Source: an uncultured Lachnospiraceae bacterium (GTDB lineage Bacteria; Bacillota; Clostridia; Lachnospirales; Lachnospiraceae). Taken from it: 64,000 bases of DNA. Of the stretch, positions 6,724 through 63,038 are shown piece by piece (positions within the stretch are counted from its first letter, which is position 1; each line of letters opens with the position of its first letter). The notes below the pieces were generated by a model. That model saw nothing but the letters and a program-made list of their open reading frames with translations. It made no database searches and was not told the origin of the DNA. The stretch is taken from assembly GCA_964402925.1 (NCBI GenBank), contig CAYOED010000006.1, positions 1,953-65,952 of the forward strand. The letters are read 5' to 3'. Both the position numbers and the translations under genes were made by a program.

Positions 6724-6873
6724 GAAATATTTCATGTTTGATGCATTTTTCTTGCTGTTTATTTTATCATAATTATTGCCGTGAGTAATTATGATATTCC
6801 ACACCTAAAATTTATATTGCAATGCTGTTCTGCAGTTATAAACAAACGCCGCCACGCTTCGCGCACCAGCTTA

Positions 6874-6918
6874 TTGTAAATAAACAGAGAGAATCTTATT
6901 GAAAAAGGTTCTCTCTGT
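6874..6918 (-). terminator. intrinsic terminator after the 157-aa ORF
   Basis: 10-bp stem ACAGAGAGAA (6884-6893) / TTCTCTCTGT (6909-6918), followed on the minus strand by GTTTATTT. Confidence 0.65.
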
Positions 6919-6957
6919 CAATGATAGCTATTATGTTGCTGGTCAAGAATTAAATCC

Positions 6958-7431
6958 TTAACAAAATACAATGATTCTTGAAGGTGTTGTCTGAGGAGGA
7001 ATACTTCTGGTGGTGGCTGTATAATAAACCAGCAGGGTCTGATCCGCCGGATTACAGTTAAACCGTTGCCCGTTCGCAGTCCTAATGTTGGTATTTCCCG
7101 CAATATTTAACTGCAGTGAGCGATCTTCCGCCAGAAGATTCCGGTCAAAATAATTCAGCATCACCTGCTCGTTCCTGCCAATCACGGTAACGATCTGCGC
7201 ACGGTACTGAGGCGGAAAAATGAGAGGAATAGGTAGGGAAGCATCATAGAATGCCGCTATACGCATTCCCATCCGGATTTGTATATCATCAATCACCTGT
7301 GTCTGTGCATTTACTACAAAGTTCGCAATTCCATCATCCGTACGCAAAGACACCATTTGACTGCAACAGTCATTTCCTCTTGCAATATTAAATACCGTAC
7401 CTATTACTGGAACAAAATCTGTGTATGCCAT
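6958..7431 (-). CDS. hypothetical protein (157 aa)
   Basis: Intact ORF 18 nt downstream of the DUF255 gene stop, with an AAAGGT Shine-Dalgarno-like site. No motif that I recognise. Confidence 0.55.
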   Translation of the reverse strand: MAYTDFVPVIGTVFNIARGNDCCSQMVSLRTDDGIANFVVNAQTQVIDDIQIRMGMRIAAFYDASLPIPLIFPPQYRAQIVTVIGRNEQVMLNYFDRNLLAEDRSLQLNIAGNTNIRTANGQRFNCNPADQTLLVYYTATTRSIPPQTTPSRIIVFC

Positions 7432-12885: not shown

Positions 12886-13223
12886 GACCCAATGTCATTT
12901 ATAGAAGGGACCGCAGCTGCGGGGCAGATATCTCACTTCATCTGGCTGGACAAAAGTCTATGGCGGAGCCTTATGGAAAGCGATTAGAAGGACTTAACAG
13001 CCCATCCATTGCCCAGCAATCGACGGACAGGACGTCCGTCGAAGGCGTAACTTGACCCATGGATGGGTCAATACGCCGTTTGCGTCCGGTGCCAATTTCT
13101 GAACAAGGGCTGTTTAGTCCTTCTTATCGCTGTACATAGGATTCGCCATAGACTTTTGTCCAGCCAGATGAAGCGGGATATCTGCCCAGCGGCTGTGGTC
13201 CCTTCTATAAATGACATTGGGTC
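12886..13223. repeat. 338-bp long-hairpin (palindromic) intergenic element, family A copy 1
   Basis: About 117-bp arms, roughly 90 percent complementary, around a unique centre of about 104 bp. The core at 12969-13084 recurs at 58513-58628 and 58979-59093. Confidence 0.85.
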
Positions 13224-30914: not shown

Positions 30915-31059
30915 ACTATTTCCTTTTTTATCCCTTTTACAGATTCTAAGACCCGTCCTATATTTTACAAGATATTGTTTTCATTTGCAATAGATTGTGT
31001 TTTATCGTATGATAAATAATAGTAGTTAAGATTATTTTTCATATGTTGACCAGAGTGAC

Positions 31060-31197
31060 GCTCTGAGAGGATAAATAATCCAACGTCGCCGCGCTCCCGC
31101 TCTACAAAAACACAGCAGACACTAGGCTCGTGAGAAACCTCGCCAAGTGCTGGTGTTTTTGTAAGGGCTCCTTATGGATTATTTATCCTCTCAGAGC
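31060..31197. repeat. 138-bp nested-hairpin element, family B copy 1
   Basis: Perfect 22-bp outer stem 31060-31081 / 31176-31197. Inner stem 31103-31118 / 31149-31163. Confidence 0.85.
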
Positions 31198-31264
31198 TGT
31201 GCATTGGCTACCTAGTGAAAAATAGCGAGCATTACGTTATTTTGCAGGCTAACCGATAACGTAG

Positions 31265-31398
31265 CACAGGACAGGTAAATATACCATAAGGAGTCCCTAT
31301 AAAAACGTCAGTGCTTAGCGAAGTCTTTTTGAGCTTAGCACTGCTACGTTTTTATGGAGCGGGAGCGCGACGACGTTGGTATATTTACCTGCCCTGTG
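31265..31398. repeat. 134-bp nested-hairpin element, family B copy 2 (inverted relative to copy 1)
   Basis: 22-bp outer stem 31265-31286 / 31377-31398 with one mismatch. It shares the unpaired segments AACGTCG(C/T)CGCGCTCCCGCTC and AGGG(C/A)TCCTTA with copy 1. Confidence 0.85.
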
Positions 31399-31453
31399 CG
31401 GACTACTGTCAACTCTATGAAAATCAACCAATTAAGCATCAAAGGAGTTTATT

Positions 31454-32392
31454 ATGGATAAATGGATAAAGCCAGTACTGTTCCTGGTTTTTATGATTTT
31501 AGCTTGTTCTGTGCTTGGCAGGGTTCTTACGAGTGGTGAAACGCTTTCGGAGTATGCTGAGCAGAATCCGGAACTTGCTTATGCGGCGCCGGAACAGACT
31601 GATGGGTCTTCTGCTTCTTTGGCAGATATGCCGACAGCGTCCCCGCAGCCGGCGCCTTCGCCAACGCCTTCCGCTATACCTGTTCCTGAATTTTCACCAT
31701 TAGCGGAAGAGTCGGATGAAAGTGTTCATTACGAGGAGGGATTTTTTTATCAGCCTTTGACGGATGTCGTCACAGCACGGATTACCGGACTCTCTTATCC
31801 AGTTTCTGATGCGATTGCGCCTGCATTGTCACTGCAGGCAACCAATGTGGTTCCTGATGGTACTGCTCTGGCAGTGTCTTATGATGATTTGCGTTACTTA
31901 AATGTACTGTACTATGATTTCGATGGAACTGTACAGGTTGGTGAAATGATCTGTAATAAGGGAATTGCTCAGGATCTGGTGGAAATCTTTTATGAACTCT
32001 ATTTGAATGAGTATCAGATTGAAAAGATAAGGCTGGTTGATGAGTACGGAGGCGATGACACGGCTTCTATGCTGGATAATAATACCTCCTGCTTTAATTA
32101 CCGGGTGGTTGACGGCACCGACAGTCTGTCAAAGCATGCGCTTGGCTGTGCCATTGATATAAATCCTTTTTATAACCCTTATATTGTCTTTAACAAAGAC
32201 GGAAGCGGTGAAACTTACATCTCACCAAAAGGCAGTGAAATCTATGCTGACCGCTCCAAGGATTTTCCTTATAAAATCGACGAATCCGATCTTTGTTACC
32301 AATTATTTAAAGAACACGGCTTTACCTGGGGAGGAAACTGGAATTCCTGCAAGGATTACCAGCACTTCCAGAAAGTCGTAAATATTGCATAA
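31454..32392 (+). CDS. M15 family metallopeptidase (D-Ala-D-Ala carboxypeptidase-like), membrane anchored
   Basis: N-terminal TM helix and Pro/Ser-rich linker. C-terminal HALGCAIDINP and GFTWGGNW...DYQHF zinc-site motifs of peptidase M15. Confidence 0.8.
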   Translation: MDKWIKPVLFLVFMILACSVLGRVLTSGETLSEYAEQNPELAYAAPEQTDGSSASLADMPTASPQPAPSPTPSAIPVPEFSPLAEESDESVHYEEGFFYQPLTDVVTARITGLSYPVSDAIAPALSLQATNVVPDGTALAVSYDDLRYLNVLYYDFDGTVQVGEMICNKGIAQDLVEIFYELYLNEYQIEKIRLVDEYGGDDTASMLDNNTSCFNYRVVDGTDSLSKHALGCAIDINPFYNPYIVFNKDGSGETYISPKGSEIYADRSKDFPYKIDESDLCYQLFKEHGFTWGGNWNSCKDYQHFQKVVNIA

Positions 32393-48923: not shown

Positions 48924-49233
48924 AAAAAAAGTCGCCTCCTTTTCGCACTTTTAAATGAATTAAGTACGACAAGCGGTGACTGTACACTCTCCCGTGCGTG
49001 TCCTGCCTCTCTTTAAAGTTAAGCACAGATTTCTCTGCGCACTTTAAGGGGCACGCTTAACGCCCGTGTTTCTGTCTTATTCGACAGACGATATGTTTGT
49101 ACAGTGACTTGCCGTCAGGTTCTTAGGTCTGGCAGTTGCCAGCCTCTTGACATTCGCTCCACGGAAAACCTGCAGTGCCTTTCGGCAAAGCAGCAACCTC
49201 ACGCTTCATCGCTATCATGCCACAGCAATTGAT

Positions 49234-58392: not shown

Positions 58393-58689
58393 GGCGTGTG
58401 GGTGGAGCGGGGATGGGGGAGGCGGTTGCCGGAACGGCATTGTATCTATCACAAACCTATGTACAGCGGTAAGAGAGGCTAGGTATCCCTATGACAGGCG
58501 CATCATGGAGGACGCAAACGGCGTATTGGTCCATCCATGGACCAAGTTACGCCTTTGGCGGACTTCCTGTCCGCCAATTGCTGGATTTTCAAAGGGATAC
58601 CAAGTCTCTCTAACCGCTTCCCATAAGGTCCGTGATAGATACAATGCCGTTCCGGCAACCGCCTCCCCCATCCCCGCTCCACCCACACG
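58393..58689. repeat. 297-bp long-hairpin element, family A copy 2 (inverted orientation)
   Basis: Perfect 59-bp arms 58393-58451 / 58631-58689, continuing imperfectly inward. The core at 58513-58628 is the reverse complement of the 12969-13084 core. Confidence 0.9.
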
Positions 58690-58895
58690 CTTCTCAGACG
58701 TAAAGCTATGCCTAACCTAAATTTTTTCTTGTCTGTCCTTACTCGGAGGCATCCTAGAGCTATTACGCTATTTATAAAAGAATACCACAAAATCCTTGCT
58801 TTTTTAACCAGATTTCTCTATTATCTAAAACAGAAGAATGAATGAGTGCATTAGGGCACTAGAAAATGGAGCGTCATTAGCATAGGCGCGTGAGA

Positions 58896-59115
58896 AGATA
58901 CAGTCAGGTCAAGGCAGGCGAGGGTGCACGGAACAGTAGACTGCTTCTAAGCTGCCCCTGCAATGCGTCTGTCTCAGACCTTATGGGAAGCGGTTAGAAG
59001 GACTTGGCATCCCATTAAATATCCAGCAATCGGCGGACAGGACGTCCGCCGAAGGCGTAACTTGGTCCATGGATGAACCAATACGCCGTTTGCCTGCCTT
59101 GACCTGAATGTATCC
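58896..59115. repeat. family A copy 3 (truncated) bounded by its own 16-23 bp inverted repeat
   Basis: TCAGGTCAAGGCAGGC 58904-58919 / GCCTGCCTTGACCTGA 59092-59107. The core at 58979-59093 matches copies 1 and 2. Confidence 0.85.
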
Positions 59116-60158: not shown

Positions 60159-63038
60159 ATGGAACATTTTACTGTTTTAAACTACCAAGGAAGTAAAAAC
60201 AGCCTAAGTAGCTTTATAAAAAAAAATATAGAGCCATATATACAAGATGGCAAAGCATTTTTTGACATTTTTTCAGGTTCTGCTGCTGTCAGTAATATTT
60301 TTAGAGATAATTATCAAGTTTTTGCGAATGATGCTGAACTCTATGCCTCTATAATAGCTGATGCTGTGCTAAATCAAGCAAATATAGATTCATCTTCTGC
60401 CTTGCTTCAATCTCTGGAAACAGAATATGCTGCTACTATTAAGGTGCAGGCAAAACCAATTTTAAATTTTATAAGCCATGAACAGCAAGCATTAAATGAT
60501 GAAAATTATGAGAAGTTAATCTCTCTTTATAAATCTTATCCAACCGTTTGGAACAATCAATATTCAGAAATAACCAGATGCACATTAAATGTTAATAATC
60601 TCAAAAAACTTAATGATTTTTATTTATTTACAACATATTATGCAACTAATTACTATGGCATTATTCAAGCACTTGATATTGATTGTCTCATCAAAATAAT
60701 TAATTTAAGCTTTGCACGTTATAAGAATACTTTGCTTGCTTGTTTATTTTACGCAATGAAAGAAACAGTTTTTTCAAAAGATGGCCATATGGCTCAACCA
60801 CTTAGTCTTGAAAAAAATCAAAACCGTCTCTTTTCTCAACGTAAAAAAAATATATATGAATTATTTATCAAAAAATTTAAAGAATACCTATCCGTTCCAC
60901 TTTCTAAATTTTCTGGAAAGAACGCTGTATTTAATTCTAATTTTGAAGAATTGTTAGACGAAACATTTTTTTCTAATATAGGATTAGTTTATGCAGACCC
61001 ACCATATACAGACATGCAATACTCTAGATACTATCATCTGCTAAATGTAGCCGCCAAATATGAGTATCCTGCATTAACCATGACCAAAAACGGATATACC
61101 AAGGGCTTATATACCGAAGGGCGTTATCAATCAAAATTAAGCCAACGTGGTTCAGCAAAACAATCATTGGAAAACCTAATTAGCTTTTGTTCACGCACAC
61201 GTACCAACCTCGCTATCAGCTACGCATATCCTCAAAATAGAGAACAGCAAGCCACAGATAGATATACAATCTCCATTGATGAATTGATTGAACTTGCTCA
61301 AAAACATTATACCAATGCTCGAGTCAATATAGCAGTTCAAACCTATAACCATGCCAACCATAGAAACAGCGAACAAAAAAAAGTTCTGGAATATTTAATC
61401 CTATGTGGTGATAAAAATTTGAATCAAGTTAATATAGATTCTCTAAAAAGAACTTTAGGCAACTTATCTCCAAGCAAAAATAACCCTATGTACAACTCTC
61501 ACATGTATTGGTCGCAAAAAGCTTTTAATATCTGTGATGCCTTAATTGATTCATTATCCAATAAAGGGAATATTGTTTTTGACCCTTTTCTCGGCTCTGG
61601 AGTAACAATACTAGAAGCCATTAAAACAGATTTATCTCGCTGCGCTATTGGTTGTGATATTAATGATATGCCGTTATTTATTTCAAAATTATTATTATCA
61701 GTTAATGCCACACCAACTATAAAGAAAGAGCTTGAACATTTTATACTTGAACTCAAAACTTTGGATCATTATTACGAAACCACTTGCCCCATATGCAAGA
61801 AAACAGGTACCATATCAAAAGTAATTTTCGACAAACCAGAAAGAACCGGTTCTGAAATTAAAATAAAAGCAATCAATTATACCTGTGAGTGTACAAGAAA
61901 AGGCATTAAATCCGCAGACGGAAATGACTATTTAAAAATGAATACTATACGGGCATTGAAAAACATCACCAACACTGATTTATTACACAACTCAAAAATT
62001 GCAGTAACTGAGAATGATGATATCAAAAACATATTTACCGGGCGCAACTTATCTGTACTAGATGAAATACTGACCATCATTAGCAAATATGAGAAAAGTT
62101 ATCAGAATATTCTAAAATATATCCTGATGTCGGTATTACATCTTTGCAAGATAACTGACAAACACTCAAATTCACAGTGGCCATTGTGGATACCGAAAAC
62201 CGATTGCGTTGAAAAAAACATTTTAGACGTTTATACTAAAAAAATTAAAAAATTTTACAATGTTATCCCTTTTATGAAAGAAAACTACAGTAATTCCGAA
62301 ATAGTTGAATCGTATGTTGATCTTTCTCCTGGTAAATGCTTACTAATGCAAAAGGGGAGCCAATTAATAACCGAGCAAGACATACCAAATAATGGCGTTG
62401 ATTTAATCATTACAGATCCCCCGTATTTGGAACAAGTCTTATATTCCGAATACATGCAGTTATATAAACCTTTTTTAAATCTGGATTACAACTTAGACGA
62501 CGAAATAATTGTATCTTCGGCACCTTCACGCAATAAGGACAAATGCAGCTATTTTGAATTGTTGGAACAAGTTTTTCATATGTGTTCAAACAAGTTAAAG
62601 CTTAACCATTTTTTATGTTTATATTTTCATGATAGCAGTTTAAATGTATGGGATAAATTAATTACTATTTTAGAAAGAAATTGCTTTAGATTTATTACTC
62701 AGATACACGTTGATAAGACAGTCACTTTAAAAAATATTATCAGTCCGAAAAAATCATTAAACGGTGACTCCATACTTATTTTTTCCAAAAGCGACTCTCC
62801 CATTGAACATAATGCCGAAGAAGATGTCTCTGAAATCGAACATAATATTATTAGGCAAGCAAAGTTTATGGTGAAGTCAAACGGCTCTTTATCCACTCCC
62901 GAATTATACGATAACGGGCTTATGGAAATTTTAATTCAAAATGGTTGGTTATCGAAACTCTCAAATAAATATTCTTCATTAGTTGATATTTTTGAAAAAC
63001 ATTTAACTTGGGACACCTCTACAGCTAAATGGAAATGA
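60159..63038 (+). CDS. fused double DNA methyltransferase (Dam-like D12 module plus permuted N4/N6 module)
   Basis: Module 1 has YQGSK..FFDIFSGSAAV (aa 35-44) and VYADPPY (aa 280-283). Module 2 has FDPFLGSGVT (aa 474-) and IITDPPY (aa 753-756), with a CxxC...CxC segment between them. Confidence 0.8.
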   Translation: MEHFTVLNYQGSKNSLSSFIKKNIEPYIQDGKAFFDIFSGSAAVSNIFRDNYQVFANDAELYASIIADAVLNQANIDSSSALLQSLETEYAATIKVQAKPILNFISHEQQALNDENYEKLISLYKSYPTVWNNQYSEITRCTLNVNNLKKLNDFYLFTTYYATNYYGIIQALDIDCLIKIINLSFARYKNTLLACLFYAMKETVFSKDGHMAQPLSLEKNQNRLFSQRKKNIYELFIKKFKEYLSVPLSKFSGKNAVFNSNFEELLDETFFSNIGLVYADPPYTDMQYSRYYHLLNVAAKYEYPALTMTKNGYTKGLYTEGRYQSKLSQRGSAKQSLENLISFCSRTRTNLAISYAYPQNREQQATDRYTISIDELIELAQKHYTNARVNIAVQTYNHANHRNSEQKKVLEYLILCGDKNLNQVNIDSLKRTLGNLSPSKNNPMYNSHMYWSQKAFNICDALIDSLSNKGNIVFDPFLGSGVTILEAIKTDLSRCAIGCDINDMPLFISKLLLSVNATPTIKKELEHFILELKTLDHYYETTCPICKKTGTISKVIFDKPERTGSEIKIKAINYTCECTRKGIKSADGNDYLKMNTIRALKNITNTDLLHNSKIAVTENDDIKNIFTGRNLSVLDEILTIISKYEKSYQNILKYILMSVLHLCKITDKHSNSQWPLWIPKTDCVEKNILDVYTKKIKKFYNVIPFMKENYSNSEIVESYVDLSPGKCLLMQKGSQLITEQDIPNNGVDLIITDPPYLEQVLYSEYMQLYKPFLNLDYNLDDEIIVSSAPSRNKDKCSYFELLEQVFHMCSNKLKLNHFLCLYFHDSSLNVWDKLITILERNCFRFITQIHVDKTVTLKNIISPKKSLNGDSILIFSKSDSPIEHNAEEDVSEIEHNIIRQAKFMVKSNGSLSTPELYDNGLMEILIQNGWLSKLSNKYSSLVDIFEKHLTWDTSTAKWK

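Follow-up and report, generated by a model that had tools for sequence, protein, structure and literature searches.

Copies of the TwoAYGGAY RNA Motif at the Tips of Long Hairpin Repeats in a Lachnospiraceae Genome

The three related repeats found in our window (the whole 64-kb stretch of DNA analyzed here) can be assigned almost beyond doubt to a known family, the TwoAYGGAY RNA (RF01731, clan CL00106). As an overall explanation, we lean, with some reserve, towards TwoAYGGAY being the RNA-acting apex of a dispersed long-hairpin repeat. The core finding is already known, as this is the rediscovery of a catalogued RNA motif and no new class; our additions are incremental and descriptive, namely the extent of the closing stem, the spread of the element as a unit, the bias of its genomic context, its head-to-head pairs, the U:U boxes of its closing stem, and its decay by microhomology deletion, none of which were found in the searchable literature on TwoAYGGAY.

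Family Identity and Structure of the Core

We scanned the whole window with Rfam 15, in which the gathering score of RF01731 is 43 bits. TwoAYGGAY matched all three repeats above this score:

12972-13138, + strand: copy 1, 112.8 bits, model positions 1-168
58458-58625, − strand: copy 2, 108.1 bits, model positions 1-168
59025-59093, + strand: copy 3, 46.1 bits, model positions 44-113 only

A permissive scan (E up to 1) returned neither an additional copy nor a competing family at the three sites. The initial annotation had proposed a structured-RNA family with two covarying hairpins and had itself counted a match of the core to a known Rfam family against its proposal; the two hairpins hold, but the family is not new, since RF01731 matches every copy.

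TwoAYGGAY was first described by Weinberg et al. (2010, Genome Biol 11:R31) in human gut metagenomes, Clostridiales, and gamma-proteobacteria, and was scored by them as “probably an RNA, not cis-regulatory, not a riboswitch”; a closing stem, P1, that is “often very large (e.g., 24 base pairs)” is already part of the discoverers’ account. CsrA binding has been proposed for it, both loops matching the CsrA site (Gardner and Eldai 2014, PMC4333381), and Rfam places it in the Csr/Rsm-binding clan CL00106 (PMC5753348). A full-text literature search found no experimental work on the motif. In the supplementary alignment of PMC2864571, the gamma-proteobacterial TwoAYGGAY of Psychromonas ingrahamii (NC_008709) is also multi-copy in one genome, its copies being followed by another short repeated sequence, GUAACACGCCGUCAGGGCGGAAGACCAACAA...

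With this family, our repeats share the full-model match of copies 1 and 2 (108–113 bits), two terminal hairpins with AYGGAY-type loops, a closing P1, and the taxon (Clostridiales, gut). They differ from it in that the loop of hairpin 1 reads A-GGA-Y, one base shorter than the consensus AUGGAU, in that the closing helix runs far past the Rfam model (about 100–220 bp in total), and in that the entire hairpin behaves as a dispersed repeat. The loop of hairpin 2 is AUGGAU in all three copies and that of hairpin 1 is AGGAC or AGGAA, the one-base-shorter version being common to most of the 107 Lachnospiraceae cores described below; P1 is present in copies 1 and 2 (32–37 bp, plus a 65–86 bp extension) and is lacking in copy 3, where its 3′ strand is deleted.

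The three cores, of about 115 nt each (12969-13084, + strand; 58513-58628, − strand; 58979-59093, + strand), align without indels from CCAGCAAT through CGTTTGC, throughout their length and at the coordinates initially annotated. In copies 1 and 3, the hairpins lie as follows:

13020-13042, + strand: copy 1 hairpin 1, loop AGGAC (from the sequence and the Rfam alignment)
13044-13077, + strand: copy 1 hairpin 2, loop AUGGAU (from the sequence and the Rfam alignment)
59030-59052, + strand: copy 3 hairpin 1 (from the sequence, Rfam, and the core pattern)
59054-59087, + strand: copy 3 hairpin 2, with one C:A mismatch (from the sequence, Rfam, and the core pattern)

Hairpin 1 reads TCGACGGAC-AGGAC-GTCCGTCGA in copy 1, TTGGCGGAC-AGGAA-GTCCGCCAA in copy 2, and TCGGCGGAC-AGGAC-GTCCGCCGA in copy 3; re-reading the three copies, we agree that all the stem changes are matched on the opposite side. 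The outer stem of hairpin 2 is GGCGTA/TACGCC in all copies, and the inner one differs between copy 1 (TTGACCC/GGGTCAA) and copy 2 (TTGGTCC/GGACCAA), a double compensatory change as previously noted; the single mismatch reported for copy 3 (TTGGTCC/GAACCAA) is a C:A. The loops read C-A-GGA-Y-G and C-AU-GGA-Y-G, with a C-G pair closing each.

Three sequences cannot prove covariation; we, therefore, examined the pairing in 107 distinct cores taken from other genomes. A core-based pattern has three matches in the window (exactly the three cores) and none in 100 shuffles, and a degenerate core pattern was used to scan a species-representative genome collection, where it found at least 114 loci, nearly all in Lachnospiraceae, with about five chance matches; the resulting alignment, A3, contains 107 distinct cores from other Lachnospiraceae genomes. 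As the pattern constrained just the loops and two C-G pairs, the remaining stem positions constitute a fair test; GGA was required by the pattern, and its conservation in the fetched loci, therefore, cannot count as separate evidence. RNAalifold predicted 36 pairs, 32 of which have changed on both sides. Standard pairs occupy 95.8% of the cells, versus 68.8% in column shuffles and 34–45% in controls with slid partners, and the covariation score of 0.711 (0.199 in shuffles) was reached by none of 500 shuffles, so that the covariation first read from three copies holds in the larger alignment.

P1 carries two conserved boxes, arranged as UUAG-N6-CUUA, on either strand, which face each other and result in two U:U mismatches; the two columns concerned, 38 and 176, hold a T in 102 and 104 of the 107 sequences, respectively. 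The pair tables of the same cores give 55 G:U against 31 A:C pairs on the sense strand, an excess that mildly favors a functional sense strand in the modeled core.

Long Closing Stems and the Decay of Copy 3

Beyond the 32–37 bp of P1, copies 1 and 2 have very long closing stems that were absent from the initial annotation:

12886-13223, + strand: copy 1, full long-hairpin element of 338 nt; outer arms 12886-12971 and 13138-13223, core 12972-13138
58394-58690, − strand: copy 2, full long-hairpin element of 297 nt; outer arms 58394-58458 and 58626-58690, core 58458-58625

The inverted repeat of copy 1 is 86 nt long with 92% complementarity; the element folds at −247 kcal/mol (z = −24) and ends 11 nt past the stop codon of an FtsX-type ABC permease gene on the opposite strand. 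That of copy 2 is 65 nt long with 97% complementarity, both mismatches being G:U on the minus strand; this element folds at −241 kcal/mol (z = −23.7) and lies 43 nt upstream of the start of the RACo/ASKHA gene, on the same strand. Among the matches listed, about 110 elements are non-coding and 220–540 nt long, with the core closed by 50–190 paired bases (10–20% mismatches) in almost all of them. The architecture is, from the tip outward, two GGA-loop hairpins, P1 with its two UUAG/CUUA boxes, and an imperfect inverted repeat of 50–190 bp.

Of 1605 arm mismatches in the elements among the matches listed, 265 are G:U on the sense strand and 244 on the antisense strand; the arms thus lack a strand bias and offer no indication that one RNA strand is under selection. 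We rejected the idea that arms are generally hypervariable: in orthologous pairs they change about as fast as the flanks, and the arms of copy 3 orthologues are 93–94% unchanged. Only the mid-arm of copy 2 is unusual. When 58394-58690 is compared with its orthologues (L123:2132-2474 and L125:2150-2456; L numbers are our labels for the fetched loci), about half of the bases differ among the three over some 25 nt, and the changes are mirrored in the partner arm (16 compensated and 3 other changes between the window and L123), next to copy 3 orthologues whose arms barely change. This mirrored divergence may have arisen through gene conversion, with paralogues as donors, or by template switching inside the hairpin.

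Copy 3 has a different layout:

58897-59114, + strand: copy 3, internally deleted element of 218 nt, 36 nt upstream of the start of the SAM-methyltransferase gene, same strand
58897-58919, + strand: outermost 5′ arm, pairing with 59092-59114 over 23 nt with 1 mismatch
58920-58981, + strand: orphaned inner long arm, 5′ strand, 3′ partner deleted (alignments A2 and A4)
58982-59013, + strand: orphaned P1 5′ strand, 3′ partner deleted (alignments A2 and A4)
59090-59093, + strand: deletion junction TTGC, where 119 nt of L058 are missing
59092-59114, + strand: outermost 3′ arm, partner of 58897-58919

The methyltransferase protein of the window is present on other public contigs, and L058, which has a near-identical gene (99% amino-acid identity), carries a full-length copy 3 that reads ...CCAATACGCCGT, then TTGCGTCC...(3′ P1 strand and inner 3′ arm)...GCACCC, then TTGCCTGCCTTGACCTG. 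At the junction, ...CCGT TTGCGTCC...GCACCC TTGCCTGCC... in L058 is opposed to ...CCGT TTGCCTGCC... in the window, L115, and L116; exactly 119 nt are thus absent from the window and from these two other samples of the same species, the gap being flanked by TTGC. In three orthologues, L058, L121, and L125, the original stem, about 117 bp long, has remained intact. We are highly confident that copy 3 is a former full element, from which a 119-nt deletion between TTGC repeats took the 3′ P1 strand and the inner 3′ arm. The initial annotation rightly saw that the right inner arm is missing and that an inverted repeat is present, but this repeat is no separate feature of copy 3: because of the internal deletion, what looked like its own repeat is the outermost end of the original stem.

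Copies 2 and 3 fill most of the divergent region between the two genes, as had been stated (they take up 515 bp of the 800 bp that separate the start codons). The divergent methyltransferase–RACo gene pair is syntenic in relatives, with the following elements:

Window and L115 (RACo identity 100% and 98%): RACo-side element full; methyltransferase-side element with the 119-nt deletion
L121 (RACo identity 96%): methyltransferase-side element only, full length
L123 and L124 (RACo identity 90%): RACo-side element only
L125 (RACo identity 78%): both elements full

In the alignment, each absence of an element is a deletion between short direct repeats (GCTGA[AG]CAG in L121, CTCATT in L123), with some flanking DNA removed too; microhomology deletion has thus cost some sister lineages copy 2 and others copy 3. 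Given these repeated losses and the broken copy 3, any cis role at this locus is, therefore, dispensable.

The following block lies between the two elements:

58762-58850, no strand assigned: conserved spacer block between copies 2 and 3, putative divergent promoter region

Hardly any position of this roughly 90-nt block varies among the window, L058, L115, L121, L123, and L125, the one-element lineages included. On its plus strand, TTGCTT (58796-58801) and TATTAT (58819-58824) are separated by a 17-nt spacer; the consensus promoter scan did not list this pair. We infer that the block is probably a pair of back-to-back promoters, which would, therefore, place both elements in sense in 5′ leaders.

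Samples of the same species differ in the DNA directly downstream of the methyltransferase gene (60159-63038 in the window; L115:3352-4845; L116:1775-3268): the window and L117 have a 959-aa fused DNA methylase (D12-class plus N6_N4), and L115 and L116 have an Abi_2 gene and a DUF2752 gene there. This region looks like a small variable defense islet.

Dispersal and Genomic Context

The elements recur in their entirety, with their arms, at loci unrelated to each other, both within one genome and between genomes; among the matches listed, 52 element pairs have similar arms within unrelated flanks. In three subfamily alignments, homology extends right up to the termini of the elements, with conservation dropping from the core outward. 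Copy numbers reach at least 5–8 per genome or MAG overall. Of the fetched genome loci, those of Mgla_MAG_49-bin_1 are most closely related to the window; at least eight copies occur in this MAG, and at least seven in RGIG4043. A single MAG, JAZLJD01, holds five copies whose arms are 88–97% similar and whose termini, GGGGACGGGGGTTTCTG..., are shared; termini are common within subfamilies (GGGGACGGGGGTTTCTG... in this one MAG, CCCAATGTCATTT... in the copy 1 type) and not across the family. A dispersed repeat unit is, in our opinion, the probable nature of the element, and since whole elements occur at unrelated intergenic sites, they would have spread as units, in a MITE-like manner. The “mobile element” that the initial annotation offered as an alternative thus receives some backing. 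We rejected the possibility that arms are copied from the local target, as they are homologous between copies at unrelated sites.

Within the JAZLJD01 subfamily (L035, L068, L090, L108; shared termini GGGGACGGGGGTTTCTGNCACATTAAAGCGCTAAAG), arm length varies through matched indels on both arms, resulting in elements of 330–536 nt. The termini of this subfamily are, we presume, reminiscent of Tn3-family inverted repeats; no 5-bp duplication was seen, and the termini were unmatched in plasmids and JGI metagenomes. Two short-read contigs, L058 (at its end) and L118 (2590-2719), stop inside TwoAYGGAY elements; long inverted repeats, therefore, break assemblies and bias MAG copy counts downward.

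The machinery behind such a spread was looked for in several ways. No consistent target-site duplication occurs at the element boundaries in the three subfamily alignments. A phage or plasmid origin found no support, as neither a blastn search for the core in phages and plasmids nor a pattern scan across viral contigs yielded a match. The blocks of about 8 kb holding the elements contain no transposase, reverse transcriptase, or other recurrent protein; the 672 neighboring ORFs, once clustered, gave generic families only (ABC transporter, HTH, histidine kinase, AraC), and no cognate autonomous element with the same ends was present in the fetched 8-kb blocks, plasmids, or JGI metagenomes. No clean empty site was found, the absences seen being microhomology deletions that also remove flanking DNA; for copy 1, the exact permease protein has no record elsewhere, and no empty site is definable, synteny downstream of the permease gene not being kept in relatives.

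Bacterial MITEs and palindromic repeats (Correia/NEMIS, ERIC, RUP, BOX) are short, non-coding, multi-copy, and intergenic; they form long hairpins when transcribed, often lie by gene ends, and decay by deletion. The TwoAYGGAY elements resemble them in all these respects; here, however, the center is conserved and the arms are variable, and, unlike for MITEs, no target-site duplication was seen and neither a cognate transposase nor matching IS ends were found. In REP/REPIN elements, mobilized by RAYT transposases, the arms (REP units) are conserved and the loop is variable. Both kinds of elements are hairpin-forming, highly repeated, and intergenic, and occur as inverted doublets, and REPINs are thought to move as folded single strands; in contrast, our elements have a conserved center and variable arms, and no RAYT gene was seen near any copy.

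A second, unrelated hairpin of about 370 nt (31045-31410; −180.6 kcal/mol, z = −14.6, without Rfam match) lies in a 540-nt gap of the window, upstream of the ORF starting at 31454 (+ strand). Homologues of parts of this hairpin are found in L024, L075, and L009, where the stretch concerned (6836-7083) abuts a TwoAYGGAY element, which suggests that long palindromic repeats of more than one family exist in these genomes.

The genomic context of the elements among the matches listed was derived from crude ORF calls, on which all the following figures rest. Gene stops lie within 30 nt of an element end in 36 cases and gene starts in 8 (29 versus 6 after de-duplication); 26 of the 36 stops face the 3′ end of the element, which is then antisense to the gene, and the other 10 its 5′ end. 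Where the two neighboring genes are co-directional, antisense elements outnumber sense ones (35 versus 16, p = 0.011; 27 versus 11, p = 0.014 after collapsing orthologous loci), so that many copies would not be made in sense from host transcripts. The whole gap between some convergent genes is filled by an element, leaving 5 and 6 nt in L077 and 6 and 8 nt in L104. T-runs at the 3′ ends are as frequent as in the control window (8/103 in both), and for this reason we rejected a role as intrinsic terminator. Head-to-head pairs, whose 5′ ends face each other across 85–250 nt, recur at unrelated sites and were seen at eight loci in all (window, L008, L026, L058, L067, L069, L082, L101), with no tail-to-tail or close tandem pairs among the matches listed. 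No motility or carbon-metabolism theme emerged from the neighboring genes.

In L108 (3600-5900), two inverted copies flank the gene of a 473-aa secreted protein without Pfam hit, each copy adjoining the same terminator-like sequence (CCGGCATCTTCGGATGCCGG then a T-run) in opposite relative orientation. The window also contains two ordinary known elements, a T-box leader (1509-1770, + strand, 106 bits) and an S10-Clostridia ribosomal protein leader (49136-49217, − strand, 69 bits), which are consistent with a Clostridia genome.

Rival Readings and Possible Function of the Apex

The main rival to the RNA reading is a selfish hairpin element without host RNA function. Its apex, with two hairpins of identical loops and the dyad-symmetric UUAG/CUUA boxes and their U:U mismatches, would be a cis structure recognized, as folded single-stranded DNA or RNA, by an enzyme that copies or moves the element; apex conservation and covariation would then reflect that only intact masters propagate, with no cellular role. 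A need for the apex in cis during propagation would explain that the center, and not the ends, is conserved, with a decrease outward that is the opposite of TIR-defined MITEs. Multi-copy dispersal with the arms, the apparent recent burst in one MAG (GGGGACGGGGGTTTCTG... termini), arms without strand bias, conserved stem mismatches of a kind typical of protein recognition of a folded strand, copies lost without visible consequence, and the choice of “safe” spots by stop codons all point the same way. Nevertheless, neither a transposase, a reverse transcriptase, nor a recurrent protein was seen in the 8-kb blocks, the boundaries show no target-site duplication and no clean empty site, the phage, plasmid, and viral collections gave no matches, and the excess of G:U over A:C on the sense strand of the core fits RNA better, even if G:T is tolerated in DNA hairpins too. 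We consider this account of the element, and of its conserved apex, possible and somewhat doubtful.

A structural repeat of the REP/ERIC/Correia kind, in which a hairpin after stop codons stabilizes or terminates the upstream mRNA or insulates operons and the apex is incidental, would agree with the excess of stops over starts near the element ends, with the wholly filled convergent gaps of L077 and L104, and with the extreme folding energies. It, however, leaves the conservation and covariation of the apex loops without explanation; T-runs are not enriched, and copies 2 and 3, upstream of start codons, do not fit. Such a role accounts for the stop-codon positions and not for the conserved apex, and we judge it improbable.

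More improbable still is that copies 2 and 3 serve the RACo and methyltransferase genes as dedicated cis-regulatory leaders of a riboswitch-like or protein-responsive type. They lie in sense, 36–43 nt upstream of the starts and downstream of a promoter-like block, and the pair already exists in L125, the most distant syntenic relative; yet each of the two is missing or broken in one sister lineage or another with the genes intact, and these losses make a dedicated leader function unlikely. Moreover, copy 1 and most other copies lie in unrelated contexts, often antisense and after stops, and the motif was scored as neither cis-regulatory nor a riboswitch by Weinberg et al. Finally, chance similarity or a purely local duplication without structural meaning, as the adjacent and inverted position of copies 2 and 3 (134 nt at 88%) could suggest, has practically no probability left, as copy 1 is 45 kb away, the core pattern is never found in shuffles, and the idea is already refuted by the Rfam match, by more than 100 further copies in other genomes, and by the covariation of 107 cores.

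Coming back to the reading that we prefer, TwoAYGGAY as the RNA-acting apex of a dispersed long-hairpin repeat, its function may be pictured as follows. Copies 2 and 3, downstream of the putative divergent promoter block, would be transcribed in the sense 5′ leaders of the RACo and methyltransferase genes. The RNA of the apex would present two GGA loops about 31 nt apart, which would most plausibly bind a dimeric RNA-binding protein; CsrA, proposed in the literature, is the only concrete candidate. Its effect could be titration or local control, and the long stem could serve as a clamp or as a processing stalk.

As in CsrB/CsrC and RsmX/RsmY/RsmZ, the GGA of our elements (two per element) sit in hairpin loops closed by C-G pairs, at a two-site spacing that one CsrA dimer could bridge, and the Rfam clan CL00106 includes TwoAYGGAY. 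The number of predicted sites is nonetheless two per RNA here, in contrast to 13–22 in CsrB/CsrC (PMC6546359), and the known sponges are single-copy genes, whereas TwoAYGGAY is a dispersed palindromic repeat for which CsrA binding is a candidate property only. A search limited to the 64-kb window and the fetched loci showed no csrA-like ORF, a result confined to these stretches. We consider binding of a CsrA-type protein a tentative proposal for the RNA function, with chances well short of even. The CsrA antagonist known from Firmicutes, FliW, is a protein and not an sRNA.

A bolder combination, to which we give a rather low probability, would make TwoAYGGAY not a free-standing sRNA gene but the conserved “handle” of a previously undescribed hairpin mobile repeat, with a conserved center and variable arms, spreading via a folded single-stranded intermediate and scattering candidate sites for a dimeric protein, possibly CsrA, into the 5′ and 3′ UTRs of Lachnospiraceae genes.

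TwoAYGGAY has been an “orphan” motif since 2010, and the context gathered here narrows its functional options: it caps very long hairpins, spreads with them as a unit, sits near stop codons or in leaders, forms head-to-head pairs, and can be lost harmlessly. If the CsrA idea is true, Firmicutes would have their first RNA that antagonizes CsrA or serves as its target module, and it would be carried by a repeat element in abundant gut bacteria.
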